From Acaryochloris marina MBIC11017 (GTDB taxonomy: Bacteria > Cyanobacteriota > Cyanobacteriia > Thermosynechococcales > Thermosynechococcaceae), in assembly GCF_000018105.1 (NCBI RefSeq), contig NC_009925.1, positions 4,890,001 to 4,922,000 of the forward strand: a DNA stretch of 32,000 nt, given 5' to 3'. Shown piece after piece: positions 14,928 to 30,591 of the stretch. Position 1 is the stretch's first letter. Every line of letters starts with the position of its first letter. A program made the position numbers and the translations under genes. The notes below the pieces were generated by a model. That model searched no databases. It saw only the letters and a list, made by a program, of their open reading frames with translations, and was not told where the DNA came from.

Positions 14928-17267
14928 TTAGTTCTTAATGCCGTTGGCAACAACACCCAGGATAGGAATCTGAGCAATTTCCAGCATACGGAGGCTTTCC
15001 TTCAACAGGCTTCTGGGAACGCTGCCTAGATGGGCAACTACCATTAAGCCATCCGTTTGAGGTGCAATAATCGTTGGATCTGCCAGGTTGAGGGGTGGGC
15101 AGTCATAGATAACTAAATCAAACTGTTCAGCGAACACACCCATCAACTTCTGCATCTTTTGAGACGCCAAGATGCGGGTTGGATCCGATGGCAACATCCC
15201 TGCTGTCAGTACAAAGAGGTTCTCGGTCCCAGGCAGTGGATGAATGGTGGACTGAAGATTACCTTCCGTCGCCATCAGGTCACTCAATCCAGGGCTGTTG
15301 GGTAAGTTGAGGACGCGGCTAAGGCTGGGAGCTCGTAAATCAGCATCGACTAACAAGACTCGTCTTCCCATAGCCGCTGCAGCCTGAGCTAAGTGCATCG
15401 AGGTGGTGGATTTTCCTTCCTGGGGTGAGCAGGATGAAATAACCAGGGAAGAAATGGGTAAGTCAGGATTGAGAAGGTGCAGTTGAGAGTAAAGGGAGCG
15501 AAAGGCTTCTAGGAACGGTGAATAGGAGTACTCCGAAGCTTTCTTGTTATTGGCAAAATTACTCAAGTTAGCCAAAGAGAATTGCTCGTTATTTAGCAGT
15601 GAAGGCTGTTCTTTTTGCTCAAGCAGTGCTAGTCCAACTTCACTCTTCAGGAAGTCACTTTCCGAAGATAGGAAGGGCGTTTCTTCCAGTTGCTTTTGCT
15701 GAGGAATGATACCTAGGATTGGACGCTTTAATTCGGCCCGGAGATCCTGTAGGGAGTGAATGGCATCATTGGTTCTATCCAAAAGAATCGCAATGCCTAC
15801 ACCGAGTAAAAGACCCAGCATTGTGCCTAAAGCCAAATCACGAGGCAGATTTGCATTGGTAATGGTTCTAACAGATGGCTTCCCTAATAACTCCCAGGGA
15901 ACCTCATTTCTAGCGGCGTTGATTAAGAGTTCTTCCCGCTTTTCTAGAAACTTACGATAAGTATCGTTGGCAATCTGAAGCTTCCGCTGCAGGTTTTCAT
16001 ACTGGCGGGTAATGGCAGGCAACTGCCCCATTTTCTGTTGTAGAGAGGATTGGGCTCTCAAAATTCCCTGTCGTTTTGCTTCCAGAACTTGAAGCTGTAC
16101 CGCAGCATCTACAAATTGTTGACTCATCCCCTTCCGCAGGGAGTTTTGGTAAGGCAGCGCTGCTGTGTCGGGAATCGTACTAGATAGATTCCGGCCAAGG
16201 CTATTGCGGGCTGCCTGGTTGATGAGAGGCAACAGCTTACTACGCTGTTCCCGTAAGTCAACCACTTCCGGGTGATTACTGGTGAGTTCTGCCGACCGAA
16301 TGGCGAGTTGAGACTCAATTTCCTGCAATTGCGCTCGCAACTTCTGATAGCTGGGAGACTCTGTCAGCACCGTGGCTGCTTCTGCACCAGATGGAGTCAA
16401 TTTTAGTTGCTGTTGTAGGGTTGTATATAACTGCCGAGTCTCCATAAGCTGAATTTGATTTTCAGCTAGCTGGCCTTGAATGGCACCGGCCTGAGAGGAA
16501 ACCTGACCACCAAACGTTGCCGGGTCCAGAAGCTGATACTGTTCACGGAACCGTTGCAGTAGCTGTTCAAATTGACGAACTTGACCTTCAGCTTTGGGAA
16601 GTTGCTGATCAACAAACTGAATCGCTCTTCTTAAGTTCGTTTGTCGCTCATTGACACTGTAATCGGTGTATTGCTGAGCTACTTCAGCGGCAATCACTTT
16701 CGCAGAGTCAGGATCGGCAGCATCAAGGGTCACTGACAATATCTTGGTGGGCGCCTTGTTTTCGGCAACTCGCTCAATTGTTAGGTTCTTAGCCAACTTT
16801 TTGTAGGACAAATTGGGATATTGAGGGCTCAATTTATCCGCAATGGGTTGAAGAATTTGAGGACTCAGAAGAATTTGGATCTGCGTAGGATAATCAAGAA
16901 CTGTCTGGGAAGCCTGAGCGTTTCCTAAGTCTTGCGCATTAACTGGGGTATTGTTACCACTAATCGCGGAAACAACTTCACTTTCAGCAGTAACAGGCTC
17001 AATCAAGAGTCGAAATTGACCTTGATAGGATGATGGTCGGGTACGGCTCCAGTATAGGGTTGAAACCGCAACAGCAGCCGTCACTAAAACGACCACTGGG
17101 AAGCGCCGACGAATAGCTCCAAACAGTTGGCCAAGATTTAGGCCTCCTTCTTCTTCTACACCAGCTTGAAAAGATTGAGGAAGGAGAGTGAGCGATGGGG
17201 TAGGAGTTTCTTTAACGGTCTCCAATCGCTGTAATCTCGTCATTTTTGAGTTAGGGCTAGGTTTCAT
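14928..17267 (-). CDS. polysaccharide co-polymerase / BY-kinase-like protein (GumC/Wzc/ExoP family)
   Basis: 779 aa with an N-terminal LNLGQLFGAIRRR + TM (Wzz-like) segment and a long Gln-rich coiled coil. A second TM follows. The C-terminal P-loop domain has Walker A SPQEGKST, A' LLVDADLR and B LVIYDCPP. A possible alternative start is M9 (17243). Confidence 0.85.
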   Translation of the reverse strand: MKPSPNSKMTRLQRLETVKETPTPSLTLLPQSFQAGVEEEGGLNLGQLFGAIRRRFPVVVLVTAAVAVSTLYWSRTRPSSYQGQFRLLIEPVTAESEVVSAISGNNTPVNAQDLGNAQASQTVLDYPTQIQILLSPQILQPIADKLSPQYPNLSYKKLAKNLTIERVAENKAPTKILSVTLDAADPDSAKVIAAEVAQQYTDYSVNERQTNLRRAIQFVDQQLPKAEGQVRQFEQLLQRFREQYQLLDPATFGGQVSSQAGAIQGQLAENQIQLMETRQLYTTLQQQLKLTPSGAEAATVLTESPSYQKLRAQLQEIESQLAIRSAELTSNHPEVVDLREQRSKLLPLINQAARNSLGRNLSSTIPDTAALPYQNSLRKGMSQQFVDAAVQLQVLEAKRQGILRAQSSLQQKMGQLPAITRQYENLQRKLQIANDTYRKFLEKREELLINAARNEVPWELLGKPSVRTITNANLPRDLALGTMLGLLLGVGIAILLDRTNDAIHSLQDLRAELKRPILGIIPQQKQLEETPFLSSESDFLKSEVGLALLEQKEQPSLLNNEQFSLANLSNFANNKKASEYSYSPFLEAFRSLYSQLHLLNPDLPISSLVISSCSPQEGKSTTSMHLAQAAAAMGRRVLLVDADLRAPSLSRVLNLPNSPGLSDLMATEGNLQSTIHPLPGTENLFVLTAGMLPSDPTRILASQKMQKLMGVFAEQFDLVIYDCPPLNLADPTIIAPQTDGLMVVAHLGSVPRSLLKESLRMLEIAQIPILGVVANGIKN

Positions 17268-17313
17268 CGCCTTTTAGGGGGGTAAGTAAAGAACTTAAAC
17301 TAATGCCAAACTT

Positions 17314-17481
17314 TCACATAGCCTGAGTTTCAAGTCAGACTGCAGATACCAAGGAATGAGGGATTAGTAAAATTTCACATATCTCTAGAATAACTTGTTT
17401 GTGAAGGGTTGCAATTGACTCAGATCACATGAACTTGGATACACGAGGCTAGTAGGCTGTTTTGAGGGAATGTAATCACAT
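17314..17481. promoter_or_regulatory. four phased copies of TCACAT upstream of the wzc-like gene (candidate regulator sites)
   Basis: TCACAT occurs at 17314, 17375, 17425 and 17476, with spacings of 61, 50 and 51 nt. Extended forms are TTTCACATA (two copies) and ATCACAT (two copies). The sites lie 47-214 nt upstream of the minus-strand start at 17267. Confidence 0.25.
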
Positions 17482-18223
17482 TATCTGTTAGCAATGGGTG
17501 CGTAAGAACAAACATTTAAGAAGCATATGAGGCAAAGGGAAAGCTGGATGTGACTTGAATCAACAGGGTTGCCATGAATTTAGTTTTCTTATGATTCAAA
17601 TAAAATTTCCTGCAATAAGTCTCACGAGACCCAAAGGCGTTTCTAGCTCTAGAATGAGCGAAAAATGCTCTATATATTGATAATATCTCCCTCATTTTCA
17701 ATATGGGTGCTGATCGTAAATCTATTGGCTAAAAATCGACCACTATCGGTTTCATTTTCTTAGCAGTAACAAACTCACAGCTATGTCGGTAGTATTAATT
17801 GATACAAAACTAATAATTATGGATGTATTCTTATTGTAGGCCTTTAGCATTAACAGAACGGTAAGATAAAGTCTGATTTAGTATGCATTAAGGATGTTTT
17901 TCACCTGTAATCTCTATATTTTTTATATTAAAAAAATAAGCAGGCAATAATTTTCCTCTTTTAGTAAATAAAAATTCTATAAAATAAAAACCTTTTATTT
18001 TATGTATTCCTCTAATCCTAAAATCCTGAATAATTATCTTTTTATATACAATCAGCTCATTTACTCATGATCAGCTAAACATATATTTCGGTTGAATTTA
18101 TCTCGTTCTAGTGAGAATATTTGAATTGTGTTTTTATATAAATAATTTTACTGATCTTTAAGTGTGTCCAGTTTTTTTATCTGATTAGCACTCAAAGATA
18201 AAAGCAAAGATAGAAGTTCTCAT

Positions 18224-18241
18224 AAGTATAGCAGTCGCCAT
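18224..18241. repeat. IS630 terminal inverted repeat (one end)
   Basis: AAGTATAGCAGTCGCCAT is the exact reverse complement of 19170-19187. Confidence 0.85.
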
Positions 18242-18246
18242 TCTAT

Positions 18247-19123
18247 TCAGGACACTAGATGTAGAACATGTTCCATTGCTTCTCTGAGAGATCCAAAATG
18301 TTCTAATTGGTGACGGATGCGACTTTTAATCCAAGACCAAGACCGCTCAATCTTGTTCAAGTCAGGGGAATAAGGCGGTAAATACCAAACCTCACATCCT
18401 GCTTTTTCCACTAATTCCTGTATTTGTCCTCCCTTGTGAAAAGTGGCATTATCTATCACCAGCTTCTGCCCAGGCTTGAGCACGGGTATCAAGCAACGCT
18501 CTAGCCAAAGTTCAAACACAGTCCGATTGCAAGCTCCTTCGATCGTGAACGGTGCCATCAACTGCTTTGCTCTCAACGCCGCAATCATATTGACTCGGCC
18601 GCTTCTACGCCCAGTCTTCAAAGCATAAACCCGCTCACCTTTGGGGCCATAAGCATAGTCATACTCGTCTCGATGATCCATGCCCGACTCATCCGCATAG
18701 ACGATATCGTCTGGGTCCACGGTACTCAGACGTTTGATGAACGCTGCCCGTTTGTGCTTATCTCGTTCTCGGTACCCATATGTTTTTTTTTCGAGTAAAT
18801 CCGATTTTCTGGAGGGCTCTTGAGATGGTTCGATCACTAATCTCTCCATCCCATAGTTGAGCCATCTGAGCTTGGGTTTTATGACGATGCTTGTGGGCAA
18901 ACGCTCGAAACTTGTCCCAGTCAGTGATTTTATGGCTATGGCCAGGATGATGGACTGGCTTGGGATGCAAATCACCCGTTTCCGCCTTGAGGTGTTGCCA
19001 TTGGTTAATGGTGTTACGACTGATATCGAACAGCTCACTAGCCTCAGAAGGGCGCATCCCATCTAGCTCAATCGCATCTATCACTTTGCAACGTAGGTCG
19101 TAACTATAAATTTTGGGCATCAC
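18247..19123 (-). CDS. IS630 family transposase in two overlapping frames (orfA 19123..18758 HTH part; orfB ..18247 DDE part)
   Basis: orfA ends ..ALQKIGFTRKKNIWVPRTR*. orfB continues ..LEKKTYGYRERDKHKRAAF.. and carries the catalytic residues VYADESG, LVIDNATFH and PYSPDLNKIER. The frames meet on an A9 run (T9 on + strand, 18783-18791). orfB is +1 relative to orfA, so loss of one A or slippage gives ..FTRKKTYGY... Confidence 0.85.
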
Positions 19124-19169
19124 ACAGGAGAAGGAATAAAATACTTCTCTAGTTTAAGTCCTTCTCAAT

Positions 19170-19187
19170 ATGGCGACTGCTATACTT
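19170..19187. repeat. IS630 terminal inverted repeat (other end)
   Basis: ATGGCGACTGCTATACTT is the exact reverse complement of 18224-18241. Confidence 0.85.
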
Positions 19188-19430
19188 CCTAAGGCTGTCC
19201 TGCCACCTTCAAAATCACACTCTATGTTCTAGATGTTTTCTCGTGCTATTTCGGCTATATAAAATAGCACTTAGCATTCAGTGCATAACGATGACTCCAA
19301 ATCATAGAGTTAATTCACCTGATTTATGAGTCAATGGTAGAGTAGGAAAGCTTTTTGGAGATATTTATTTTGTAGGGCTAATAGGTAAAATGGATGATCA
19401 TTTAGAAAGATGCTTGCCACTTATCATAGA

Positions 19431-19469
19431 AGATGCATTATTTTTGTATAATTAAAAAATAATGCATCT
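19431..19469 (-). terminator. candidate operon-end hairpin downstream of the GT2 synthase gene
   Basis: Perfect 15-bp stem AGATGCATTATTTTT (19431-19445) pairs with AAAAATAATGCATCT (19455-19469), with a 9-nt loop. It lies 57 nt after the stop at 19526. The stem is AT-rich and has no clean trailing U-tract, hence moderate confidence. Confidence 0.4.
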
Positions 19470-19525
19470 TTGAGAAGAAAAGTATAGACAAAGTAGGTTC
19501 AAATCTCTGATTCTAAAGTGTAGAT

Positions 19526-21949
19526 TTAGGTGTTTACTAACTCGGTAGAGGCTGATTCTGCTGTGGGAGGTTGCCAAATAGCAGCCTTGATCAAAGCCCA
19601 AATCAAAGAAACATTATAAATTGCCCAGGCAGAGTTCAGAAGATGCAGGCCAGGGTTATCTAAAGTACCCATTGCATACCGAATTAGACTCCAGGAAATC
19701 CCTAATATAGTCAGAATGACAACCGTGAGTTGAGGGATTACAAGACCAACATACATCCCAGATTGACGTTGTTTAGGAGTGACTTGAAACTTAACGGGTC
19801 TACCCGTGAACACACTCCACACCGCCTTGATAAAGAGTGGAAAGAGTGCGATCGCAAATTGTTCTGCTCGCCATAGTTCCTCCTTCTTAATGCCCCAAGC
19901 AGCGGCCATAAAGGTAATCCGGTTGAGAATGAAAGCAGGCACAAAATGGATGGCAAACGCCAGGCCATAGGTTTGCACGGGTATCGCTTCAGTAAAAAAG
20001 TAAATCAGCGGACAGGCAATGAAAATCAGAGTAAAAAATCCAGAAAAGTAGCTATACATCGTCTGGAAGTATTGCAGCTGCTGCCAAACGGTGAGCCCTT
20101 TTTTGGTGAGAGGATTCTCTTGTAGCAAGACTTGAACGGTCCCTTGAGCCCATCTCAGTCGCTGTTTTAAAGTAGAGCTGAGGTCATCTGGTGCCAGGCC
20201 AACTGCTAATACTTCATGGTGATACACTGACTTCCACCCTGCAGCATGAAGTCGCATCGCCGTATTCATGTCTTCCGTAATACTGGCACTGGAGACCCCG
20301 CCCACCAGCTCAAACTCCTCTAAGCGTTTTTGATCTGCGATATATTCATCGGCGAAATTTTGCAGCCCCGTTGTGACTAACGCTTCGCGACGTAAAACCG
20401 CATTCGTGCCTGTATAAAAGGCTGAACTCATGCCATCCTTCCCTTGTTGAATCGGGCCATAGAACAGACGCGCTTGATGGCCAAAGGGGTCACCGGGAGG
20501 AAGGTTATAAAAGTCTTGTGGGGTTTGAACAAAGGCAATATCGCTGTCTTTGTATGCCCCATCCTGCATACTGTAATCAAAGAAATAGGGCAGGGCTCGC
20601 TGGAGAAAATGAGGTTTAGGAATATGGTCGGCATCTAGGGTCAAGATGAGATCGCCGGTTGTTTCTCCGGAAAACAAGGCATAGTTAATGTTGCCTGCTT
20701 TAGCATGATGGGGTTTCCCTTTAGGCTTGGGACGAGCAATATAGCGACTGCGCGCTAGGTCAATTAAGTCCTGTTCCTTTTGCTCAATGGTGCGTTGTAG
20801 GGTCTTGATTTCGGCCTTGAGATAGTCCGTCACCGAGCCATATTGATGATTGAGTAGACGAGTGCTCTGTTGCAGGCTATGGAGATAACCGGCTAACTGC
20901 TGAGTTTGATCTTGAATCCCAGTGGATTCTGGTGAAAAGAACTTGATGGCAATTAAACACTGACGTTGATCGGGAGTCGGATTGTAGCTGATAAAGTCAG
21001 TGAATTGGCTCATAATGCCAAAGCCTCTCCCTCCTTCAGCCATTAGATCCACATCTTCCAGGGATTTGAAGATTTTGTCGGGGTTGTCTAGACCAGGACC
21101 TCGGTCCCAAATCTGCAGAACTAAGACATTGCTGGAAATGTTTAATTCCAAATCAATCGGTGTGGTGGGGGGAAGATCCTTATGGGCATATTTCAAGACA
21201 TTATCCACACCCTCACCCAATACCGTTTGCAGCTCTAACCATGGTTTCATGGGAATGTGAGGTTGCTGAAGCTGGCTAAACCAGTCCAGGGCTACTTGGG
21301 CATTCTCTCGTTTGGTTTCTAGGGTCAACGTATGAGACTTTAATTTCTCCTCTCCAGCCGCAATTTCTGAGGCAAGACTTTGGAGATGCTGCAACTGTGC
21401 CTTGAGGTGTAGACGTTGCGAGTTGATCTCGTCTGCAGCGGCACGAAGCTGTGGTGTTTGCAAATCCCCAATACATAATTGCTCCGACATTTGCCGCATT
21501 TGAGGAGAATTTCCGTCATCCAGTACATAGACCTTCAACTTTGTCGCAGGATAGTCCATGTTTAGAGCTGCTTTCGCCGTTTCTCGAACCATCTCAACAG
21601 GTTCGTTGTAGCAGGTGATAAACACATCAACACTCGGCCATTCAGCTTCTGGCAATGCGGGGCGCATTTGTCTGAGGGGTTTGACATCTCGGACAATGGG
21701 CCGCCAGAGACCGATAAAGAACATGACGCCGCCGATATAGCTATAAATTTCCGCGAGTAATAGCGGAAGGGCTAACCACAGGGCATTGAAGTTAACCGAA
21801 TTGAGGATCCGCCACTGCAAATACCAGCCCCCAAAAATGAGGTTTATGATCACCAGAAACCGAAAGAGTAGGGTCCTATCCTTTAGTCTGATGCGGATAT
21901 TGCCAGAAAAAGCAGGGGTATTTTCAATAATGGGGACGGCATTAGTCAT
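19526..21949 (-). CDS. processive family-2 glycosyltransferase (cellulose-synthase-like beta-glycan synthase) with an embedded GHKL ATPase-like insert
   Basis: 807 aa with 2 N-terminal and about 6 C-terminal TM helices. GT2 motifs are CYNEP, VLDDG (aa 142-146), HAKAGNIN (415-422), LDADH, FVQTPQDF, SITEDM and QRLRWAQG. No PilZ-like C-terminus is present. Confidence 0.9.
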   Translation of the reverse strand: MTNAVPIIENTPAFSGNIRIRLKDRTLLFRFLVIINLIFGGWYLQWRILNSVNFNALWLALPLLLAEIYSYIGGVMFFIGLWRPIVRDVKPLRQMRPALPEAEWPSVDVFITCYNEPVEMVRETAKAALNMDYPATKLKVYVLDDGNSPQMRQMSEQLCIGDLQTPQLRAAADEINSQRLHLKAQLQHLQSLASEIAAGEEKLKSHTLTLETKRENAQVALDWFSQLQQPHIPMKPWLELQTVLGEGVDNVLKYAHKDLPPTTPIDLELNISSNVLVLQIWDRGPGLDNPDKIFKSLEDVDLMAEGGRGFGIMSQFTDFISYNPTPDQRQCLIAIKFFSPESTGIQDQTQQLAGYLHSLQQSTRLLNHQYGSVTDYLKAEIKTLQRTIEQKEQDLIDLARSRYIARPKPKGKPHHAKAGNINYALFSGETTGDLILTLDADHIPKPHFLQRALPYFFDYSMQDGAYKDSDIAFVQTPQDFYNLPPGDPFGHQARLFYGPIQQGKDGMSSAFYTGTNAVLRREALVTTGLQNFADEYIADQKRLEEFELVGGVSSASITEDMNTAMRLHAAGWKSVYHHEVLAVGLAPDDLSSTLKQRLRWAQGTVQVLLQENPLTKKGLTVWQQLQYFQTMYSYFSGFFTLIFIACPLIYFFTEAIPVQTYGLAFAIHFVPAFILNRITFMAAAWGIKKEELWRAEQFAIALFPLFIKAVWSVFTGRPVKFQVTPKQRQSGMYVGLVIPQLTVVILTILGISWSLIRYAMGTLDNPGLHLLNSAWAIYNVSLIWALIKAAIWQPPTAESASTELVNT
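20714..21478 (-). other. ~250-aa insert between the DDG and HAKAGN motifs: coiled coil, GHKL (RsbW/SpoIIAB-like HATPase) core, coiled coil
   Basis: N-box EGVDNVLKYAH (21182-21214), G1 box WDRGPGLD (about 21092-21109) and G2 box GGRGFGI (about 21017-21034). Heptad-like Gln/Leu-rich segments flank the core (aa ~165-225 and ~345-400). From memory, BcsA-type synthases have only a few tens of residues between these GT2 motifs. Confidence 0.65.
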
Positions 21950-22175: not shown

Positions 22176-25100
22176 TTATTTATTATTGTTTTTGGACAAA
22201 GCGCTGTTGGGAGCCCCCCAATAGGTGCCGGTCGAATCAGTAATGAGCTGCAATTTGGGTTTGGGGGTTGGCGGTAGGCCTGTACCAATTTCTTCGTTGG
22301 CTACGGCTTTCCACCAGGGGGAGCTACGGGAGATATCCGCAACGAGTAACGGTTGGCGATCGCGCAAGCGATACAAGATAGACTGCAACACAATACTGTT
22401 GGTGGAGCCACTAAAACCAGGATTAGATTGGCCCGATTGCTCATTCACCCCTTCGTAAAAACCCAATACGGGGTTATACAGGTCTAAAGCGGACTGATAT
22501 AGCTCTTGAGCATAGTCATTGTCAGGGAAAATCGCATGGTAGGCGAAAGCGGCAGCACTACTGATCACGCGTTGCTCAGACTTTAAGGCTTGGTCAGCGG
22601 ATGAGGCCGCCCAAGCTTTTTTATCTTTGCTGATCAAGCTGCTATGGATCACGTAGGGGGCTTTCGTCGTTAAGGTGGTTCCAGCTGCCGTCAATACCCC
22701 TTCACGGTTATATCGTTCTTGTTGAGCTTGCAACATGGGTAGAACTAATTGCCGCATTTGGGGATCTAGGCCCAGTTCTAAGCCGTAAACCATAAACGGA
22801 TTGCTAACGATCTGTTGATCCTTATCAGACTTCTTGCGAGGTCGGTCTCGCTCAATCGGAATTTGGAACCCTTCTAATTCGGCTGTTTTGTAATTCCCGC
22901 CTACCGCCGCTTCTGTTACATCAAAGCCCCAAAGCTGGAAGCCTCGGGCTGCATATTCTTCATAGCCCAAGCGAGAATCTGGTTTGACTCGGATTAAACG
23001 ACGACCATTGCTGTCAGCTTCGACAAAGGCACTGTGGATACGACCGTCTCGAACAACCCGTAAGAACGACCAGTCCAACACAATCTCATCAATAATGTCG
23101 GTATAGCCCTTATGACACCCCTTGAGATTGTGGAGCGCCAACAAGAAACGGCCCACGTCTAAACCGGACCAGCCGATCCCTTCAGGAGAAGGGTTCATGC
23201 CGTAATCTACCGCCTCAAGGGTGCGAATATCATAGTTGCGATGGGGCAATTCACCACCATGTAACGGTAACCGTTTTATTGCACCTAAAAATAAGCGAAC
23301 TCGCTGATCAAATTCTTCGATGGTAATCACATCCAGGGATTCAGCCGCTTGAAGCGCTGCGATATAGTCTCCCATCCCCCAAAGGGTTGCAACTTTCATG
23401 TCGCTGCGATCGCTCACCAGTCCCGTACTGGATTCATAATTCGCTTCAAAGTATTTCCAGGCTGCTTTGGCATACCGCTTCTCAGCTAGGTGAGGTCGGC
23501 GAGTTAAGTCCTGGCAGACCGAAGAATCTTTGGGTTTTCGTCCCGACAAGATGGGAGCCACAGCCACCTGAACGGGCTGATTCGGCGGTTCCGGCTGTTC
23601 TATTTTGCCGATGGGTTCTGGTGAAGGAGCTGGGGCTGGGGTTGATGCGACAACTGGAGCTGGGACTACAGTAGGTGCAAGAGTCGGCAAGGATGTCGTC
23701 GTTTGACCAGGGGAGAATTGGGGACTAGCACCATCCCCTTCAATAAATTGGCAGCAAACCACTAGGTTCGGATCAATTGCGCTAGGTTGAGATACCGTTT
23801 GCTGAGTGGGAGACTGAGCAACGACAGGGCTAGGTGCTGGCGCAGCACTTGGGCCAGGCGTTGGGGCTGGAGCGGGTGTCGGTGCTGGCGCAGGTGCCGG
23901 GGCGGGTGCTGGAGCTGGAGCGGGTGCCGGAGTTGGGGCGGGTGCCGGAGCTGGGACGGGTGCCGGAGTTGGAGCAGGTGCCGGGGCTGGGGCGGGTGCT
24001 GGAGCTGGAGCGGGTGCCGGAGTTGGGGCGGGTGCAGGAGCTGGAGTCGGGGCAGCAGCTACATTATCTGGAGCTGGATAACCTTCTGCAACGATTGTAT
24101 TTTGGGGACTTCCAGTAGACGCATTAACACCATTCCCACCGATCAACGGTCGATATCCCCTGGCCTTGTAATAAAGGATTTCCATGATCAGTCCGTTGGT
24201 ATTTCCGGTCAGAGCTTGATTAGGCTGATTGGTTTCTTCATACAATCCTGCATAAAAGCCGCCACCATCCGGGCTCATCAACCCCTTCGCGACTTCAAAC
24301 AATTGATCTGCATAGGGTTCATCGGGAAAGATATACCGCCAGCCAAACGCAGCTTTGGTACTAATACTGCGCTTGTCAGGATGAAGCTCATTTTTTTCGG
24401 TAATCGTAGCCCAAGCCACGCCATTGGAAAAAACAGTGTTGTAAAGGAAGTAAGGCGGGCCATCAATATTGTCTTCTGTCACAGCTGTAAGCTGTCCAGT
24501 TGCTTGATATCGACGTTTTTGAACTTCTAGAACCCGAGCGGCATAGTCTCGCATTTGGTCGCCCAGAAAACCAAATTCAATCCCATCCAAAATATAAGAT
24601 TCACTCACCACATAGTTATTGGCATTTGTTTCTTGATAGGCCCGAGTATCTACAGGAATCTGCACCCCATAGATTTCGACCATTTGGAAGGGTTCAAAGG
24701 ATAGTGCTTTGGGGACAGAGAACCCCCATAACTCATACCCCCGAGCAGCATATTCTTCATAGCCTAGGCGGCCTTCTTGTACAGGTAGGGTTTGGCCATC
24801 TTCCAGTACCGTTGCCCCAAACATATTGCCATCTTCAATGGAACGTTCAATCGCCCAGCGATCCACAATAGCCTGTAACCAGTCGGCATACTGAGGATGG
24901 CAGGTACGGAGAACATGGAAAGCCGCCAGAATTCGACCAATATCAAGAGCCGACCAGCCAATCCCTCGCTCAATGGGATTGTTACCGTAATCCACCATGT
25001 CGCCATTGGCAGCGTTATAGACCTTATTCGGCAGGCTGTCTTCAAATAGTTTCAATCCGGCTAAGGACGTTAAAAACTTATTCAGTTTCTGATCCAATTC

Positions 25101-26828
25101 CTCTTGCGGGATCAGGTTCATCCACCGGGCTGCATTCAGAGCCATCAGGTAGTTGCCCATATCCCATAAGGTGCCGGAAGGATATCCTCCCGACGAATTG
25201 GTAAACCCAGTTGCTTCTTGATAGTTATTGACAAAATATTGCCAAGCAGTGCGAGCGTAGGTTTCTTCCTCTGGTGTTAAAGGATTGGTAATGCCCCCAC
25301 AGGAATTATCGCCAGGTGGCGGAGGGGGAGCAGCAATAGGTGCCGGAGATGGAGCTGGGGTAGCCGCAGGTGTGGGAGAGGGGGCTGGTGCCGGGGCTGG
25401 AGCCGGAGATGGAGCTGGGGCTGGAGCCGGGGCTGGGGCTTGGGCTGATGCAGGTGCAGGAAACTCTTCCATGACCACGGTCGTTTCAGGGTTTCCAGTC
25501 GAAGCACTAACGCCATTCCCCCCAATCAGTGGCCGATTGCCTCTGGCCTTGTAATAGAGGATTTCCATAATCAGCCCGTTTGTGTTTCCGGTTAAGGATT
25601 TATTGGGCTGTTGGGTCTCCTCATACATACCAGCAAAAAAACCGCCACCATCCGGACTCATTAATCCCTTGGCAACCTCAAAAAGCTGTTGAGCGTAGGG
25701 ATCATCTGGGAAAATATAGCGCCAACCAAATGCTGCCTTCGTGCTAATACTGCGTTTATCAGGGTGGAGTTCGTTCTTTTCCGTGATGGTGGCCCAGGCG
25801 ACACCATTAGAGAAAACAGTGTTGTAGAGGAAGTAGGGCGGGCCATCAATGTTATCCTCAGTCACTGCTGTCAATTGGCCTGTGGCCTGATAGCGTCGCT
25901 TCTGAACTTCAAAGACCCGGGCGGCAAAGTCCCGCATTTGATCGCCTAAAAAACCAAATTCAATGCCATCTAAGATGTAGGACTCACTGACAACATAGTT
26001 ATTCGCATTGGTGTCTTGATAATTACGCGTATCTACAGGAATTTGCACCCCATAGATCTCGACCATTTTGTAAGGTTCAAAGGACAATGCCTTCGGAACC
26101 TGAAAATTCCAAAGTTCGTATCCTCTGGATGCATACTCCTCATACCCGAGGCGGCCTTCCTGCACTGGTAAGGTTTGACCATCTTCAAGGACTGTAGCCC
26201 CATACATATAGCCATCTTGAACGGACCGATCCACCGCCCAGCGATCAATGATGGATTTTAGCCACTCCGCATATTGAGGATGGCAGGTGCGCAAGACATG
26301 AAACGCTGCCAGAATACGGCCAATATCTAGGGCGGACCAACCAATCCCTCGCTCAATAGGGTTGTTGCCATAATCCACCATGGCCCCATCGGCTGCGTTG
26401 TACACCTTATTCGGCAAGCTATCTTCAAATAGCGTTAACCCAGCCAGAGATGATAGGAATTTATTTAGTTTTTGATCGAACTCTTCTTGGGGAATCAGGT
26501 TCATCCATCGGGCCGCATTGAGGGCCATCAGGTAGTTTCCCATATCCCACAAGGTGCCTGAAGGGTACCCCCCGGTAGAGTTGGTAAAGCCTGTCGCTTC
26601 TTGATAGTTATTCAGAAAGTATTGCCAAGCCGTGCGGGCGTAGGTTTCCTCCTCTGGTGTCAGAGGATTTGTAATCGCACCACATTCATTGGCTTCTTGG
26701 GCATAGGCAACCTTCTCTGTAGTAAAAGGTAGCCACAGAGGAGGAGAAAGAATGCCTAATGCCAACCAGGCAACTAGTCTAACTATTGGCAGAGGACGAC
26801 GTCGCTTCATCAGATAGGATGGCCCCAA
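22176..26828 (-). CDS. secreted 1550-aa protein with three tandem copies of a ~390-aa alpha-helical domain (I believe DUF3131-like; possible glycan-binding/glycoside-hydrolase-like fold), joined by Pro-Ala linkers
   Basis: Sec-type signal (MKRRRPLPIVRLVAWLALGIL...AYA-QE; the likely true start is M7 at 26810). Domain copies lie at about 25501-26684, 24121-25301 and 22350-23516. They share the blocks AW.YF..NY...TG, TLW(D/G), LP.(K/R)(V/N)Y, VDYG, GIGWS..D(I/V)GR, EGRLGYEEYA.RG..LW, LTA, S(T/S)(K/A)AAF and GFY.G.(Y/N)E. Confidence 0.85.
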   Translation of the reverse strand: MGPSYLMKRRRPLPIVRLVAWLALGILSPPLWLPFTTEKVAYAQEANECGAITNPLTPEEETYARTAWQYFLNNYQEATGFTNSTGGYPSGTLWDMGNYLMALNAARWMNLIPQEEFDQKLNKFLSSLAGLTLFEDSLPNKVYNAADGAMVDYGNNPIERGIGWSALDIGRILAAFHVLRTCHPQYAEWLKSIIDRWAVDRSVQDGYMYGATVLEDGQTLPVQEGRLGYEEYASRGYELWNFQVPKALSFEPYKMVEIYGVQIPVDTRNYQDTNANNYVVSESYILDGIEFGFLGDQMRDFAARVFEVQKRRYQATGQLTAVTEDNIDGPPYFLYNTVFSNGVAWATITEKNELHPDKRSISTKAAFGWRYIFPDDPYAQQLFEVAKGLMSPDGGGFFAGMYEETQQPNKSLTGNTNGLIMEILYYKARGNRPLIGGNGVSASTGNPETTVVMEEFPAPASAQAPAPAPAPAPSPAPAPAPAPSPTPAATPAPSPAPIAAPPPPPGDNSCGGITNPLTPEEETYARTAWQYFVNNYQEATGFTNSSGGYPSGTLWDMGNYLMALNAARWMNLIPQEELDQKLNKFLTSLAGLKLFEDSLPNKVYNAANGDMVDYGNNPIERGIGWSALDIGRILAAFHVLRTCHPQYADWLQAIVDRWAIERSIEDGNMFGATVLEDGQTLPVQEGRLGYEEYAARGYELWGFSVPKALSFEPFQMVEIYGVQIPVDTRAYQETNANNYVVSESYILDGIEFGFLGDQMRDYAARVLEVQKRRYQATGQLTAVTEDNIDGPPYFLYNTVFSNGVAWATITEKNELHPDKRSISTKAAFGWRYIFPDEPYADQLFEVAKGLMSPDGGGFYAGLYEETNQPNQALTGNTNGLIMEILYYKARGYRPLIGGNGVNASTGSPQNTIVAEGYPAPDNVAAAPTPAPAPAPTPAPAPAPAPAPAPAPAPTPAPVPAPAPAPTPAPAPAPAPAPAPAPAPTPAPAPTPGPSAAPAPSPVVAQSPTQQTVSQPSAIDPNLVVCCQFIEGDGASPQFSPGQTTTSLPTLAPTVVPAPVVASTPAPAPSPEPIGKIEQPEPPNQPVQVAVAPILSGRKPKDSSVCQDLTRRPHLAEKRYAKAAWKYFEANYESSTGLVSDRSDMKVATLWGMGDYIAALQAAESLDVITIEEFDQRVRLFLGAIKRLPLHGGELPHRNYDIRTLEAVDYGMNPSPEGIGWSGLDVGRFLLALHNLKGCHKGYTDIIDEIVLDWSFLRVVRDGRIHSAFVEADSNGRRLIRVKPDSRLGYEEYAARGFQLWGFDVTEAAVGGNYKTAELEGFQIPIERDRPRKKSDKDQQIVSNPFMVYGLELGLDPQMRQLVLPMLQAQQERYNREGVLTAAGTTLTTKAPYVIHSSLISKDKKAWAASSADQALKSEQRVISSAAAFAYHAIFPDNDYAQELYQSALDLYNPVLGFYEGVNEQSGQSNPGFSGSTNSIVLQSILYRLRDRQPLLVADISRSSPWWKAVANEEIGTGLPPTPKPKLQLITDSTGTYWGAPNSALSKNNNK
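23826..24075 (-). repeat. (Pro-Ala/Pro-Thr)n linker-coding low-complexity repeat with an exact 45-bp direct repeat at 90-bp period
   Basis: GGCGGGTGCTGGAGCTGGAGCGGGTGCCGGAGTTGGGGCGGGTGC occurs at 23901-23945 and again at 23991-24035. It encodes ..APAPAPTPAPAPAPAPAP... Confidence 0.9.
24121..26684 (-). repeat. intragenic tandem duplication, period 1383 nt (461 codons), two domain-plus-linker units
   Basis: By eye, copy A (25501-26684) and copy B (24121-25301) encode peptides identical at roughly nine of ten positions. The DNA differs at many synonymous sites, for example Leu CTG vs TTA and Glu GAG vs GAA within NPLTPEEETYA. Confidence 0.9.
25313..25460 (-). repeat. (Pro-Ala)n linker-coding low-complexity repeat between domain copies A and B
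   Basis: Encodes PAPASAQAPAPAPAPAPSPAPAPAPAPSPTPAATPAPSPAPIAAPPPPPG. The DNA is GGNGCN-type hexamer repeats. Confidence 0.9.
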
Positions 26829-26892: not shown

Positions 26893-28383
26893 TTAAGTTT
26901 CCAGCTCAGAAACACCAGCCCAAACGGCTAAAGGTTTGCCAACCTTTTTGAATAATAAGCACTCTAAGATAATGCCATTATTATTAGCTGTCAATACGGC
27001 ATTTGGCTCATCTAAGGTCTCATAAAAACCACTGTACCAACCTTTTTTAGAACCGACTTTTTCTTGCACAAAAGAAAACAGCTTTTTGGTGTAATCCGTG
27101 TTGTAAAGAACATGCCAACCAATCGCCGCTTTCGTACTAACAAAGCGAAGATGATTGTAGTTTTCTCCGGTGTCACTAATGGTTGCCCAGGGTTTACCGT
27201 TTACATACAAGGTGTTGTAAACAAAATAGGGTTCCCGATCTAAATTATCTTCCGTGATAGCGGTCAATTGCTTCGTCGCTTTATAACGAGCTTCTTGAGC
27301 CGCTAACATCCGATCGGCATAGGCCTTAGGCAGGGCTTTAAAGCCTGTCTCAATGCCATCCAAGAAGAATGGCTCACTTAATACGTAATTATTCGCTTCC
27401 GAATTTTCGCGATCGCGCACATCAAATGGAATGCTGTGGCCATAGAGTTCAACGAAGGCCGATTTGTTGTCATAATCTAAAGCCTTATCAACATTGAGTC
27501 CCCAGAGTTTCAATCCATAGGCTGCATAATCTTCGTACCCTAAGCGTCCTTCCTGGTTGTATTGCTCTTGACCATCCTTGATACTGGTGCCGAACATTTG
27601 GCCATCTTTCGTCAACCGCTTGACATCCCAGGCTTTCCACACTGCCGTAGTTTGGGGTTCAAACTCGGGATATTTAGCAGCAATAATTTTTAACCATAGG
27701 GCAATTCGTCCCAGGTCAATTGCTGACCAGCCAATCTCTTCCCGTTTGTCTAGAGAACCATAATTTACCGGCATAAGGTTTTGGGAATTGTAGACCTTAT
27801 TGGGAAGCTCTCCCTTATACAATTCCAGTTTGGCAAGAGTGGTCAACATCTTGCTCATGGTTGCTTTGAATTCCTTTTCTGAAATCAAGTCCAATTCTTT
27901 GGCACTGACCACAGCCGCCATTGCTGCGCTTTGATCCCAAAGGGTCACCGATTGAAATTGATCAACCGAATTAGCCAACCCTGTGTCTGGATTAATATTG
28001 GTCTCAAAATAGCTCCAAGCCTTCTTGGCGACCTTTAGCTCGGCAGGGGACAGTTTACCGACATGTGCTGGGATATAAGGTGTGGTTGTTTTTGCAATTT
28101 CTTGTTTGCTCACCCGATCACCTGGAAATTTAATTGAGCGGGAATCAGGTTTTTCATTCTTGGCCTTGGGTTTCGCCTTGGCGGTGTCAGAGGTCTTTGA
28201 ACTAGGAGCGGTAGCAGTGGTCGTAGGGCCAGACTCTTGAGTCGATTCTTTTTGGGAAAGATTGCCCGATAACATTTCTAAACCTGCGATCGCAGCGACG
28301 GCTGTCACTACCCCCCCTAAATAGGTGAGAAAAGCAAGTTTTTTAGGTGGCATTTCGAAATTAGAATTCATGACTGCTCCCAC
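26893..28383 (-). CDS. membrane-anchored protein with a single copy of the same ~390-aa (DUF3131-like) domain
   Basis: 496 aa with one N-terminal TM (LAFLTYLGGVVTAVAAIAGL) and a Ser/Thr/Lys-rich spacer. The domain then shares AW.YF, TLWD, LPNKVY, EIGWSAIDLGR, EGRLGYEDYAAYG.KLWG, LTAITEDN, STKAA and WYSGFYE with the neighbouring gene. The likely start is M5 (28371). Confidence 0.85.
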   Translation of the reverse strand: MGAVMNSNFEMPPKKLAFLTYLGGVVTAVAAIAGLEMLSGNLSQKESTQESGPTTTATAPSSKTSDTAKAKPKAKNEKPDSRSIKFPGDRVSKQEIAKTTTPYIPAHVGKLSPAELKVAKKAWSYFETNINPDTGLANSVDQFQSVTLWDQSAAMAAVVSAKELDLISEKEFKATMSKMLTTLAKLELYKGELPNKVYNSQNLMPVNYGSLDKREEIGWSAIDLGRIALWLKIIAAKYPEFEPQTTAVWKAWDVKRLTKDGQMFGTSIKDGQEQYNQEGRLGYEDYAAYGLKLWGLNVDKALDYDNKSAFVELYGHSIPFDVRDRENSEANNYVLSEPFFLDGIETGFKALPKAYADRMLAAQEARYKATKQLTAITEDNLDREPYFVYNTLYVNGKPWATISDTGENYNHLRFVSTKAAIGWHVLYNTDYTKKLFSFVQEKVGSKKGWYSGFYETLDEPNAVLTANNNGIILECLLFKKVGKPLAVWAGVSELET

Positions 28384-28584: not shown

Positions 28585-30591
28585 TTAAAAATCGATTCTC
28601 AACTGCCCAGAAAAGATATGGCTATTACTGGCCCCAGATCCACTTGAAATGATGTTGGTGAGAACATAACCAAAATCAAGCTCTACATTATCGGCCAAAG
28701 ACGCTGTACATTTCGCTTGTAATCCTCGACCGGTACTTTTGCCCCCATTCACGACTTGGTTGCCAATAGAGGCAGCAAATTGGCAGGTTAAGGGGTCAAA
28801 AATTTTGCCTTTCCAACCCACTTCAGCGTTGTAGAGTAAAAAACTGAGGGGAGAAAAATAGCCACTCTCTGATTCTAGATCTTCCGCAAAGTTCCAGGTG
28901 AATACGTTTGCAGCGACAGAAAAAGGTCCGATTTTTCGTTCTAATCGGCTGAAAGACTGGATTTCTTGGTTGCCATCATTGAAAAATCCAGCTTGGAACA
29001 GCCCAAAGAAGGTGGTTTTACTATCAATTTGCCAAAATACGCTTGGACGAATCCGCCAATAGCTAATTTCATTCTCTAAAGTCGTGGTGTTGAATTTATA
29101 AGGACCATGCTCGACTTCTCCAGAAACCAAGACTTGTCCAAAAAGGGATGTTTTCGCTCCCACCTTAAATGTAGGCTGAGGATCTAAACGATTAAATACT
29201 TCAGCACCCGCCGCTACATTGATGGAAACCTCTCCAACTTCAGTCTCCCATCCTAAAATCAGCGGAATATTTTTGACGGGTTCTTGCCCTTCCTGGCTAT
29301 AGGTGTTGACCCCTGTTGTAAAGGTGACAACATCTCCATTCCGAACTCGAAAAGTTATAATTTCTTCGATTTTTAAGTTTTCTTTGCCAAACTCATCGAA
29401 ATCTAGCTTGAAGTCAGTTGTCGAACTCTCTAAGACAATAAAAGACACCTGTGGATCATCAGCGGCTCCAATCGGGGTTAATTCAGTAGGGAACCGATCT
29501 GGAGGTGTTTTTTGAGGCGGTTGAAGAGGGAGGTCTGGAGGTACCGTAGGCGATTGAGCGGTCGTTTGTGCAGGAACCTTAGGTGTGCCTTGCACTAGCA
29601 CAGGCTGAGAGGTAGGTGAAATATTTTGCTGCCGGGCGGGTGAAGGTAGAGATCGAAAACGAGGGGTAGATGAAGGGGGCGAGCTGTCCCGAAAAGCTTC
29701 TGGAACAGTCGGTTGGGACCTTTGTTGCCGCGTTGGGGGCAGACCTGATGGACGGACAGCAGGGCTAGAATGAGGTGCTTGATGAGCAGGCGTTGTCGCA
29801 CCCCCTGTCGCAGAATCCTTGGGAGAAGTAGCAGAGGGTATGTTTCGAGGAACGGGACCTGAAGGACGGACCGTTGGACTATGGATAGGGGCACTATCAA
29901 CGGGAGTTACCGCCCCTCCCTCAAAAGAACCTGGGAGTGAGGGATGCTTTGGGAGATCTGTTGGTCGCGGAGCTGGACCTGAAGGTCGGGCCGCCGGACT
30001 ATGGGCTGGTGTTGCTGCACCGCCTTGAAAATCATCGGGTGAGGAGCGAAGAGGAATATGGGTTGGCCGAAGAGCTGGACCTGAAGGACGAGCTGCTGGA
30101 CTATTGGTAGGAGGTCTAGGGGTTTCCGCACCTCCGTGAAAATTATCTGATGGGGGCAGTGGTGAGGCTATTGGCCGAGGAGCTGGACCTGAAGGACGGG
30201 CCGCTGGACTAATAATTAGTAAGGGTGAATTAGGTGGAACTGGGGACGGAGAATATGGCTGAGAATTCTCCACTAGCGGAACTCCATCCGCCTCTGCTGG
30301 AATATTCACATCAGTTGGAAATGAAGCTCCGCCTTGGGGGCCTGCTCCAGATGGGCTGGTCGGGGTAATGGCTGGTGAGGAGGGGAAAGGTTGGGGAGAA
30401 GCCTGGGGACGTGCAGGCTTTTTCTGAGAACGGTCAGGTTGAACAATAGGCTGGAGCAAGCCGGGATTCAACTCATAGGGGCCTGCAACTAACATCGGCT
30501 GTTGAATCACAGGCGAGGATAACTCCTGAGCCTTTGGAGTATTGAGGTCAGTTTGACAGCCTAAGCATAGCGTTGCCAACACGGAAAACAT
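28585..30591 (-). CDS. putative outer-membrane lipoprotein: Pro-rich repeat stalk plus C-terminal beta-barrel (BcsC-C-terminal-like porin, tentative)
   Basis: 668 aa. The N-terminus MFSVLATLCLGC has a lipobox-like LGC. Residues ~25-375 are Pro/Ser/Ala-rich with five 34-40-aa repeats (SPAARPSGPAPRP...GGA.TP). Residues ~380-668 show an alternating beta-strand pattern, a GYFSP motif I associate with BcsC-type barrels, and the terminal ..FSGQLRIDF (C-terminal Phe). Confidence 0.75.
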   Translation of the reverse strand: MFSVLATLCLGCQTDLNTPKAQELSSPVIQQPMLVAGPYELNPGLLQPIVQPDRSQKKPARPQASPQPFPSSPAITPTSPSGAGPQGGASFPTDVNIPAEADGVPLVENSQPYSPSPVPPNSPLLIISPAARPSGPAPRPIASPLPPSDNFHGGAETPRPPTNSPAARPSGPALRPTHIPLRSSPDDFQGGAATPAHSPAARPSGPAPRPTDLPKHPSLPGSFEGGAVTPVDSAPIHSPTVRPSGPVPRNIPSATSPKDSATGGATTPAHQAPHSSPAVRPSGLPPTRQQRSQPTVPEAFRDSSPPSSTPRFRSLPSPARQQNISPTSQPVLVQGTPKVPAQTTAQSPTVPPDLPLQPPQKTPPDRFPTELTPIGAADDPQVSFIVLESSTTDFKLDFDEFGKENLKIEEIITFRVRNGDVVTFTTGVNTYSQEGQEPVKNIPLILGWETEVGEVSINVAAGAEVFNRLDPQPTFKVGAKTSLFGQVLVSGEVEHGPYKFNTTTLENEISYWRIRPSVFWQIDSKTTFFGLFQAGFFNDGNQEIQSFSRLERKIGPFSVAANVFTWNFAEDLESESGYFSPLSFLLYNAEVGWKGKIFDPLTCQFAASIGNQVVNGGKSTGRGLQAKCTASLADNVELDFGYVLTNIISSGSGASNSHIFSGQLRIDF
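29740..30220 (-). repeat. in-frame tandem repeats (102-120 nt units) coding the Pro-rich stalk
   Basis: The core GGACCTGAAGG(A/T)CG.. occurs at 29855, 29975, 30077 and 30185, with spacings of 120, 102 and 108 nt. A fifth degenerate unit lies near 29740. Confidence 0.85.

Follow-up and report, generated by a model that had tools for sequence, protein, structure and literature searches.

Cellulose synthesis by BcsA, a processive synthase of glycosyltransferase family 2 (GT2), is gated by cyclic di-GMP (c-di-GMP) via a C-terminal PilZ domain. Among the cellulose-type synthases devoid of PilZ, whose control is addressed here, are the cyanobacterial enzymes commonly named as ancestors of plant CesA. 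The present study concerns one such PilZ-less enzyme, encoded in a stretch of 32,000 nucleotides of the Acaryochloris marina MBIC11017 genome (NC_009925.1, positions 4,890,001 to 4,922,000; hereafter the window, with coordinates counted from its first letter). Nested in its catalytic domain, the synthase has an ATPase domain of the GHKL family and of the SpoIIAB/RsbW type, that is, of the kinases that work in partner-switching circuits with a STAS protein (SpoIIAA/RsbV) and a PP2C phosphatase (SpoIIE/RsbU).

Synthases with an insertion in the catalytic domain have been described before. In plant CesA, the plant-conserved region (P-CR or PCR) mediates trimerisation, and a structural overlay has PilZ and PCR occupying overlapping space (PMC8892547). 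Cyanobacterial 'cellulose synthases with PCR domain' were defined as having no PilZ, an insert between the conserved segments U1 and U2, and two N-terminal plus five C-terminal transmembrane (TM) helices (PMC12430437), a definition that the window synthase satisfies; the proteins so described (alr3757, Npun_F1469) represent a hairpin-only short form of the window-synthase family. Zhao (2015) noted an 'insertion of ~90 amino acids' in the 788-aa CesA of Synechococcus 7002 relative to the Nostoc protein, and knockout of this CesA (SYNPCC7002_A2118) leads to loss of a cellulase-sensitive layer labelled by a carbohydrate-binding module (PMC4851311). With its 788 aa, A2118 appears, by length alone, to be a long form like the window synthase. 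Earlier mentions speak of an 'insertion' or a 'distinct module' and leave the domain unnamed (PMC4851311, PMC8892547); papers on the cyanobacterial PCR-type synthases treat the insert as plant-like PCR or unnamed module, none of them naming a GHKL kinase or linking STAS or PP2C, and a 2025 review of cyanobacterial cellulose synthesis mentions neither ATPase nor STAS. Public databases already tag relatives with PF13581 or name some of them 'ATP-binding protein'. Full-text searches of the literature came upon no cellulose-type synthase described as containing a GHKL kinase or as linked to a STAS protein or a partner-switching trio. The initial annotation of the window knew of no description of this regulatory solution for any processive GT2, which stands insofar as no description naming GHKL was found; the insert itself, however, had been seen previously, as the ~90-aa insertion (PMC4851311). 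The novelty is in the combination of partner switching with a PilZ-less cellulose synthase, both kinds being already known.

Partner switching with outputs other than sigma factors is known to affect polysaccharide production, as in HmpU/V/W of Nostoc punctiforme and SypA/SypE of Vibrio fischeri (PMC8256260). These systems apply the logic of STAS protein, kinase and PP2C to polysaccharide-linked phenotypes, with the downstream target undefined (PMC8256260, PMC6495340), but unlike the nested kinase they are neither fused to nor reported beside a synthase. The fusion of a partner-switching-type domain to a cyanobacterial polysaccharide glycosyltransferase has a parallel in all4160 of Anabaena (PMC8256260); in that protein, however, STAS is the fused domain, at the N-terminus instead of nested, and it is joined to a glycosyltransferase other than the present one. 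Identity of the trio found at relatives of the window synthase (see below) with HmpU/V/W was considered and rejected: hmpW, hmpU and hmpV (Npun_R5134, R5135 and F5169) are not neighbours of the synthase gene Npun_F1469, and hcyA-D are Npun_1682-1685. The locus trio is probably a system different from HmpU/V/W.

A SpoIIAB/RsbW-type domain nested in a PilZ-less synthase

The synthase gene is composed of the following segments and motifs, all on the minus strand; the positions of the motifs were verified.

19526-21949, minus strand: PilZ-less processive cellulose-synthase-like GT2 with nested GHKL domain, 807-aa open reading frame (ORF)
21479-21949, minus strand: aa 1-157, two N-terminal TM helices (model helices 26-50 and 54-81) and first GT-A half including DDG; aligns with BcsA 201-326
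21512-21520, minus strand: DDG, aa 144-146
21338-21478, minus strand: aa 158-204, outgoing long hairpin helix, Gln/Leu-rich (model helix 166-202, predicted local distance difference test score, pLDDT, about 85-94); kept in short forms
20930-21337, minus strand: aa 205-340, complete SpoIIAB/RsbW-type GHKL (Bergerat) domain (PF13581; Foldseek template-modelling score, TM-score, 0.74-0.79 to SpoIIAB); the segment missing from short forms
21182-21214, minus strand: N box EGVDNVLKYAH, aa 246-256 (E246, N250, H256)
21086-21106, minus strand: G1 box DRGPGLD, aa 282-288 (D282, G284, G286)
21014-21037, minus strand: G2 box/ATP-lid region EGGRGFGI (E305, G307, R308, G309; GGRGFGI is aa 306-312)
20753-20929, minus strand: aa 341-399, hairpin return helices (model helices 348-366 and 373-396); kept in short forms
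19529-20752, minus strand: aa 400-807, second GT-A half, gating loop and five C-terminal TM helices, without PilZ; aligns with BcsA 336-690

The insert is delimited by alignment with E. coli BcsA (7lby). Residues 31-158 of the synthase pair with BcsA 201-326 and residues 413-791 with BcsA 336-690, and since the flanking alignments leave only a ~9-residue connection in BcsA, about 254 aa are inserted (aa 158-412; 20714-21478). The initial annotation had placed a GHKL domain in the 'catalytic loop', within the 268 residues that separate VLDDG (aa 142-146) from HAKAGN (aa 415-420). These positions proved accurate, as did those of the N, G1 and G2 boxes, in the order typical of GHKL proteins, and the insert does lie within the GT2 catalytic domain; 'catalytic loop', however, is not the right term for a site between U1 (DDG) and U2 (DxD), the position of the plant P-CR.

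The domain assignment is carried by profiles and by structure prediction. Pfam HATPase_c_2 (PF13581) matches aa 216-328 with E=2.5e-13 and 50.6 bits, well above the gathering cut-off of 27.4, and HATPase_c remains sub-threshold at 23.4 bits. The only GHKL matches among the NCBIfam models are SpoIIAB (E=7e-5) and RsbW, and the best sequence match of the insert in the PDB is SpoIIAB. In agreement with the earlier remark that phospho-acceptor His module and PilZ are both lacking, neither HisKA nor PilZ of Pfam matched the synthase even at E<=1. AlphaFold2 run on the single sequence gave an unusable model (pLDDT 38), whereas the model obtained with 115 aligned homologues as input reached pLDDT 84.3 and a predicted TM-score of 0.78. 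In the latter model, aa 206-337 form an alpha/beta domain composed of a strand (206-211), helices (216-226, 234-255), a hairpin (264-282), the lid, a helix (308-316) and another hairpin (319-337). Foldseek aligns the insert with SpoIIAB (1l0o_A) at E=2.2e-6 and a TM-score of 0.79 over the target (root-mean-square deviation 3.6 A, 140 columns), with further matches to the same fold in 1th8, 1til and 1tid. The Bergerat sandwich expected for a GHKL protein is thus present in the predicted model, as the whole SpoIIAB fold with N-terminal strand and helix included, and the flanking helices foreseen as Gln/Leu-rich appear at 166-202, 348-366 and 373-396. Given the model and the SpoIIAB match, the insert is understood as a GHKL domain of the anti-sigma type, complete and borne by a helical stalk, hence more than a helical region of the known P-CR-like kind. 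A SpoIIAB/RsbW-type GHKL domain between the GT2 motifs DDG and HAKAGN/DAD is thereby confirmed. It shares with SpoIIAB and RsbW the Bergerat fold of ~140 aa and the N, G1 and G2 boxes; it differs from them in being nested in a membrane glycosyltransferase instead of being a free protein, in having no linked sigma factor, and in that its presumed output is an enzyme.

The body of the protein is that of a processive BcsA/CesA-type GT2. The motifs HAKAGN (415-420), DAD (439-441), TED (558-560), QRLRW (596-600) and FQVTPK of the gating loop (721-726) are all intact and conserved across the homologue alignment, and the protein thus has the D, D, D, QxxRW signature, the FxVTxK motif and the TM channel in common with BcsA. 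The C-terminal TM helices of the model are 621-653, 663-683, 689-715, 734-760 and 766-791. Pfam splits the catalytic domain in two (Cellulose_synt at 1.9e-34 plus split GT2 matches), the top PDB sequence matches are BcsA and plant CesA, and Foldseek of the synthase body against the PDB retrieves the same two proteins at E of about 1e-20 to 1e-22. BcsA proper it is not: the GT2 part resembles CelA/BcsA in NCBIfam but scores far under the equivalog cut-offs (TIGR03030, 325.6 versus 699.1 bits; NF008558, 257.7 versus 992). It differs from BcsA further in lacking PilZ, in having seven predicted TM helices where BcsA has eight, and in that the window has no BcsB gene.

The insertion point is shared with plant CesA, and both inserts are helical hairpins (predicted here; for the plant region, PMC8892547), but that of the plant enzyme is devoid of GHKL and has its role in trimerisation. 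When the hairpin of the short forms was searched against the PDB, plant CesA chains included, no CesA match was obtained at E<=10 (phmmer). 'P-CR-like' therefore means a shared site only.

Conservation and linked genes in relatives

The synthase-GHKL architecture is found across the cyanobacteria in >100 protein clusters of about 800 aa, among them proteins of Acaryochloris (up to 98% identity), Coleofasciculus, Lyngbya, Calothrix, Pleurocapsa, Geminocystis, Nodosilinea and Leptolyngbya. Residues expected to handle ATP are strictly kept. All 55 nested homologues that could be aligned at the N box have its E, N and H, as do the 21 stand-alone copies (see below); D and G of the G1 box are invariant in the 57 nested homologues, and in the G2 region E305 and G309 are found in 57/57, G307 and R308 in 55/57. 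The ratio of non-synonymous to synonymous substitution rates for the GHKL segment, 0.027 and 0.096 against two relatives (L007 and L004), is similar to that of the catalytic core, although with synonymous divergence of about 1-1.6 these ratios are rough. Among 1.84 billion representative proteins, 231 relatives of the GHKL segment were found at E<=1e-3, a mix of ~140-200 aa and ~700-800 aa, and from these two size classes the segment is recognised as a small, specific GHKL subfamily. The nested domain is, by its residues, likely active and apparently ATP-competent. One metagenome-assembled genome (MAG) has a degenerate insert of intermediate length from which the N, G1 and G2 boxes are lost (L059, 10001-12220); its STAS gene is still immediately downstream.

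Gene neighbourhoods were compared in 80 loci taken from one-genome-per-species contigs, with all ORFs scanned by hidden Markov models (HMMs) built from the locus proteins. The counts below refer to unique loci whose downstream flank is 1.5 kb or longer (46 long-form, with nested GHKL domain; 27 short-form).

STAS gene within 1.2 kb downstream of the synthase gene: long form 34/46 (32 on the same strand), short form 25/27
PP2C gene within 10 kb: long form 23/46, short form 24/27
DUF3131 gene within 10 kb: long form 34/46, short form 27/27
Separate GHKL gene: long form 0/46, short form 21/27

Taken together, STAS adjoins the synthase in 59/73 cyanobacterial loci, PP2C is within 10 kb in 47/73 and DUF3131 in 61/73. 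The STAS-type partner predicted at the outset from the window alone is thus a regular neighbour of the synthase in its relatives. In Lyngbya, Nodosilinea and Acaryochloris bin.148, a STAS gene of 107-108 aa directly follows the synthase and is accompanied by a receiver-PAS-GAF-SpoIIE(PP2C) protein and a hybrid histidine kinase with Hpt domain. All of the 66 locus-linked STAS proteins keep the serine of the motif F-[MI]-[ND]-S-[ST]-G, which aligns with Ser58 of SpoIIAA. The related loci thus have the three-component set of the SpoIIAB/RsbW systems, with the STAS phospho-Ser conserved.

Short-form synthases of ~665 aa were found in 27 loci of Nostoc, Anabaena, Dolichospermum, Nodularia, Microcoleus, Scytolyngbya and Aliterella. 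By alignment, they retain both helices of the hairpin stalk and are without exactly the GHKL core. In 21 of the 27 loci, a stand-alone GHKL gene of ~139 aa, called 'anti-sigma regulatory factor' in RefSeq, lies about 2-2.7 kb downstream. Its product aligns end to end with the insert, matches the insert-derived HMM at E=1e-38 to 1e-49, and shares with it the motifs W..Q, CQT..EGF.N..HAH, ERGRGL and LSY...R.CL. The typical order in Nostoc is DUF3131, DUF3131, GT2, PIG-L, STAS, receiver-PP2C, GHKL and hybrid kinase; the PIG-L family deacetylase gene stands between synthase and STAS in these clusters (L063, 12019-12726; L089, 11067-11774). In a neighbour-joining tree of the catalytic core, rooted with proteobacterial sequences, all 200 of 200 bootstraps recover the cyanobacterial family as monophyletic, and 150/200 recover the short forms as such. 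No bootstrap groups the long forms together, since a Leptolyngbya/Nodosilinea long-form clade branches first. On this tree, one fusion plus one fission and two fusions would be equally parsimonious; that the insertion point is identical speaks for one fusion followed by one fission.

Relatives of the GT2 extend to proteobacteria. By tblastn, PilZ-less synthases of ~600 aa with 33-34% identity were located on plasmids (L092, L093, L094, L095); their alignment shows no insert at the P-CR site. Two other insertions are seen in these proteins: one, of about 33 aa, follows QTPQWFYDLPEG, and the other, which is longer, precedes the TED motif. In Chimaeribacter and Pantoea, genes for GHKL, STAS, (receiver-)PP2C, a hypothetical protein and OpgC are arranged divergently from those for GT2, three DUF3131 proteins and a response regulator. 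The Sphingobium locus has GT2 and SPOR, then GHKL, STAS and SpoIIE, and further BcsS, GH16, a CHASE3-domain protein and a response regulator; DUF3131 and OpgC are not annotated in the Sphingobium stretch. Paracoccus has PP2C and GAF genes beside GT2 and three DUF3131 genes, so that DUF3131 genes occur in 3/4 proteobacterial loci inspected (Chimaeribacter, Pantoea and Paracoccus). The proteobacterial kinase and STAS proteins match the cyanobacterial HMMs. The same cassette is listed without comment as accessory 'block 3b' of Klebsiella pneumoniae in a 2026 paper (PMC12974863), and the clusters of Klebsiella, Chimaeribacter and Pantoea have in common the PilZ-less GT2, three DUF3131 proteins, OpgC, an anti-sigma-type kinase with its antagonist and a sensor-kinase or response-regulator gene. 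Clusters of the Klebsiella, Pantoea, Chimaeribacter and Sphingobium type differ from the nested synthase in having the kinase as its own gene; they have only been listed, never studied. That the components persist across phyla despite differing gene order is strong evidence of a functional unit.

As to the polymer, the A2118 knockout suggests cellulose as a possible product; another beta-glucan would be possible given GH16, OpgC and DUF3131 as neighbours. OpgC, GH16 and BcsS together with a globin gene were observed in the proteobacterial clusters, and there are hints in this that the proteobacterial product may be a modified or mixed-linkage beta-glucan.

The synthase as proposed target of a partner-switching circuit

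The domain identity of the insert, its conservation, the synteny with STAS and PP2C and the pattern of fusion and fission are observed. We read them to mean that the insert works as a serine-kinase and binding domain of the SpoIIAB/RsbW type and provides the kinase of a partner-switching circuit that controls the very synthase it is part of instead of a sigma factor, and assign to this reading a probability of roughly two in three. From the sequences we infer ATP use by the domain, phosphorylation of STAS and any effect on polymerisation; gating of polymerisation by the insert, as proposed in the initial annotation, would be the consequence.

A plausible circuit can be outlined. The GHKL domain would cap a helical hairpin protruding from the GT-A fold of the PilZ-less synthase. 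The other parts would be a single-domain STAS protein of ~107 aa, a SpoIIE-type PP2C fused to a receiver, often with PAS/GAF in addition, and, at the inspected loci, a hybrid histidine kinase (with Hpt where domains are listed) that presumably feeds the receiver. A signal would be passed via hybrid kinase and receiver-PP2C to phosphorylated STAS (STAS-P), which would become dephosphorylated. Unphosphorylated STAS would dock on GHKL and so alter the way in which hairpin and GHKL bear on the catalytic domain and the gating loop, with the predicted effect that the synthase switches, most likely on. Phosphorylation of the STAS serine by GHKL, with ATP, would let STAS-P depart and the synthase reset. 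Two wirings are conceivable: GHKL could be an in-cis inhibitor relieved by STAS or, alternatively, STAS could be a direct activator, with the tethered kinase as local off-switch. Because the P-CR site overlaps the space of PilZ, the module would replace gating by c-di-GMP and PilZ. More tentatively, and with the odds clearly against it, the RsbW-like domain (or the free Nostocales kinase docked on the hairpin) might be an 'anti-synthase factor' that keeps the gating region in one state until displaced by unphosphorylated STAS. If so, this would be the first partner-switching circuit to act directly on a polysaccharide synthase, and it would parallel PilZ gating without c-di-GMP, conserved between Enterobacterales and cyanobacteria. 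It would also follow that the P-CR-site hairpin evolved as a kinase platform, with the plant P-CR maybe its kinase-less descendant.

Several observations weigh against the synthase being the target of a circuit of this kind. The 32-kb window has no STAS gene, as was initially remarked and as tblastn with three STAS proteins, hmmsearch and the ORF listing of 17200-19600 agree, and it has no PP2C gene either; kinase, STAS and PP2C are encoded together in relatives, not in the window. The closest syntenic relatives (L005-L007) and several Pleurocapsales loci are likewise without linked STAS and PP2C, and the linkage in the lineage of the window rests on an unlinked orthologue of 81% identity. In 20/21 stand-alone GHKL proteins, all of Nostocales (L063-L086; for example L063, 14537-14953), the G1 Asp, which is the adenine-binding residue, is replaced by Ser (IRIWSQGEPFD), as opposed to the 57/57 nested copies and the stand-alone copy of Scytolyngbya that keep it. 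Because of this replacement, at least the Nostocales branch may bind STAS without phosphorylating it, the protein being possibly a pseudokinase or altered in nucleotide binding. Hybrid kinases, finally, are common in cyanobacterial genomes, and their proximity is weak evidence.

In the MAG of Acaryochloris sp. IP29b_bin.137 (L007), whose synthase is 92% identical to that of the window, there is a STAS protein with 81% identity to the one beside the synthase of bin.148. Acaryochloris genomes keep the gene for this STAS orthologue (81-82% identical) at one and the same site apart from the synthase, with ftsH on one side and a TPR/M50-like gene on the other (L087, 2989-3312; L088, 8001-8324). Since this MAG and other Acaryochloris keep it, the STAS partner is probably unlinked and not lost in the window genome. 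The window carries the synthase/kinase part only; we expect the genes for STAS and PP2C at other sites of the genome.

Other functions of the nested domain are considered less probable. SpoIIAB and RsbW form dimers, and the predicted model contains the SpoIIAB fold in full; the domain could therefore be mainly an oligomerisation scaffold that pairs synthases and sets the bundling of glucan chains, with ATP and STAS at most modulating the assembly. The insert at the P-CR position (PMC12430437) and the CesA trimer contacts mediated by the plant P-CR (PMC8892547) would fit. We consider this improbable. Conserved catalytic residues make a purely structural role insufficient: the scaffold leaves unexplained the conservation of Glu, Asn, Asp and Gly, the phospho-Ser of STAS and the conserved PP2C, and the insert-less proteobacterial relatives retain the trio as separate proteins.

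Still harder to sustain is a partner-independent sensor that reports energy charge, as ATP/ADP, to the synthase and has no need of STAS in lineages like that of the window. The intact ATP-binding residues and the purifying selection in an Acaryochloris lineage without linked STAS are what such a sensor would predict, but the same lineage retains the 81%-identical STAS orthologue in a MAG with 92%-identical synthase, and in most other lineages STAS is immediately adjacent.

A membrane-tethered anti-sigma factor, with GHKL sequestering an alternative sigma factor at the synthase and releasing it when STAS binds, which would couple transcription to the synthase's state, is suggested by the closest characterised relatives, SpoIIAB and RsbW, which are anti-sigma factors, and by the RefSeq name of the stand-alone copy. 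Canonical anti-sigma systems, however, are co-operonic with their sigma factor. Neither the window nor any of 12 annotated neighbourhoods around synthase genes has a sigma-factor gene, and with none linked in any neighbourhood inspected, the anti-sigma role is very unlikely. The conserved companions in two phyla are the synthase and DUF3131 proteins, and no sigma interaction is found in cyanobacterial HmpUVW and HcyA-D (PMC9127174, PMC6495340).

There is little to commend phosphorylation of the synthase itself or of a cluster protein (DUF3131, or the 668-aa protein described below) with STAS merely as inhibitor, the least likely of the alternatives: kinase and synthase do share one polypeptide and phosphoregulation of plant CesA is established, but SpoIIAB/RsbW-type kinases are not known to phosphorylate anything but their STAS partner, and the DUF3131 proteins appear extracytoplasmic.

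A kinase/STAS/PP2C switch built into the synthase would constitute a concrete and testable answer to how PilZ-less synthases are controlled, and it would make the synthase a candidate direct target for partner-switching systems with unassigned outputs, such as HmpUVW and SypA/E. Since a PilZ-less GT2 and the trio, usually with DUF3131, form a cassette found again in Nostoc, Leptolyngbya, Acaryochloris, Klebsiella and Pantoea, a single mechanism may apply to many uncharacterised exopolysaccharide loci. The result also bears on the origin of the P-CR insertion site of plant CesA. The knockout phenotype of the 788-aa CesA in Synechococcus PCC 7002 should make the system tractable (PMC4851311).

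Neighbouring genes in the window

Further features of the window, upstream and downstream of the synthase gene, are listed.

22176-26828, minus strand: upstream gene for a 1550-aa protein with three DUF3131 domains (PF11329) and long Pro/Ala-rich linkers, a conserved companion
26893-28383, minus strand: second DUF3131 gene, 496 aa, single domain (PF11329, E=1.8e-157)
28585-30591, minus strand: 668-aa protein with Pro-rich N-terminal half and beta-rich C-terminal part ending in LRIDF (sub-threshold BCSC_C, E=0.0047)
19430-19470, strand not applicable: perfect 16-nt inverted repeat with 9-nt loop, terminator-like, about 55-95 nt after the synthase stop
18224-19187, minus strand: complete IS630-family element with 18-nt perfect terminal inverted repeats (18224-18241 and 19170-19187)
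14928-17267: gene with Wzz and P-loop domains (Wzc-like, of the bacterial tyrosine kinase type), next to the synthase locus

For DUF3131, we found no sequence relative in the PDB, no NCBIfam match and, in the papers found to mention it, no functional study. Plus-strand ORFs of 94-247 aa at 23387-24871, rich in Cys, Trp, Arg and Gly, are read-throughs of the DNA encoding the Pro/Ala linkers and are almost certainly not genes. The 668-aa protein has homologues at the same position in two related loci (L004, L006), and its profile has no match in the PDB; the weak BCSC_C similarity hints at a possible outer-membrane component or exporter for the polymer.

On the downstream side, the IS630 element is located between the synthase and the Wzc-like gene, where most relatives have STAS. 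Its overlapping ORFs (HTH_Tnp_IS630 and DDE_3) encode a transposase of the frameshift type. The order of GT2 followed by Wzc is common to L005 and L006 and therefore predates the present IS copy, and the Wzc-like neighbour is a stable feature of the Acaryochloris-like lineage.

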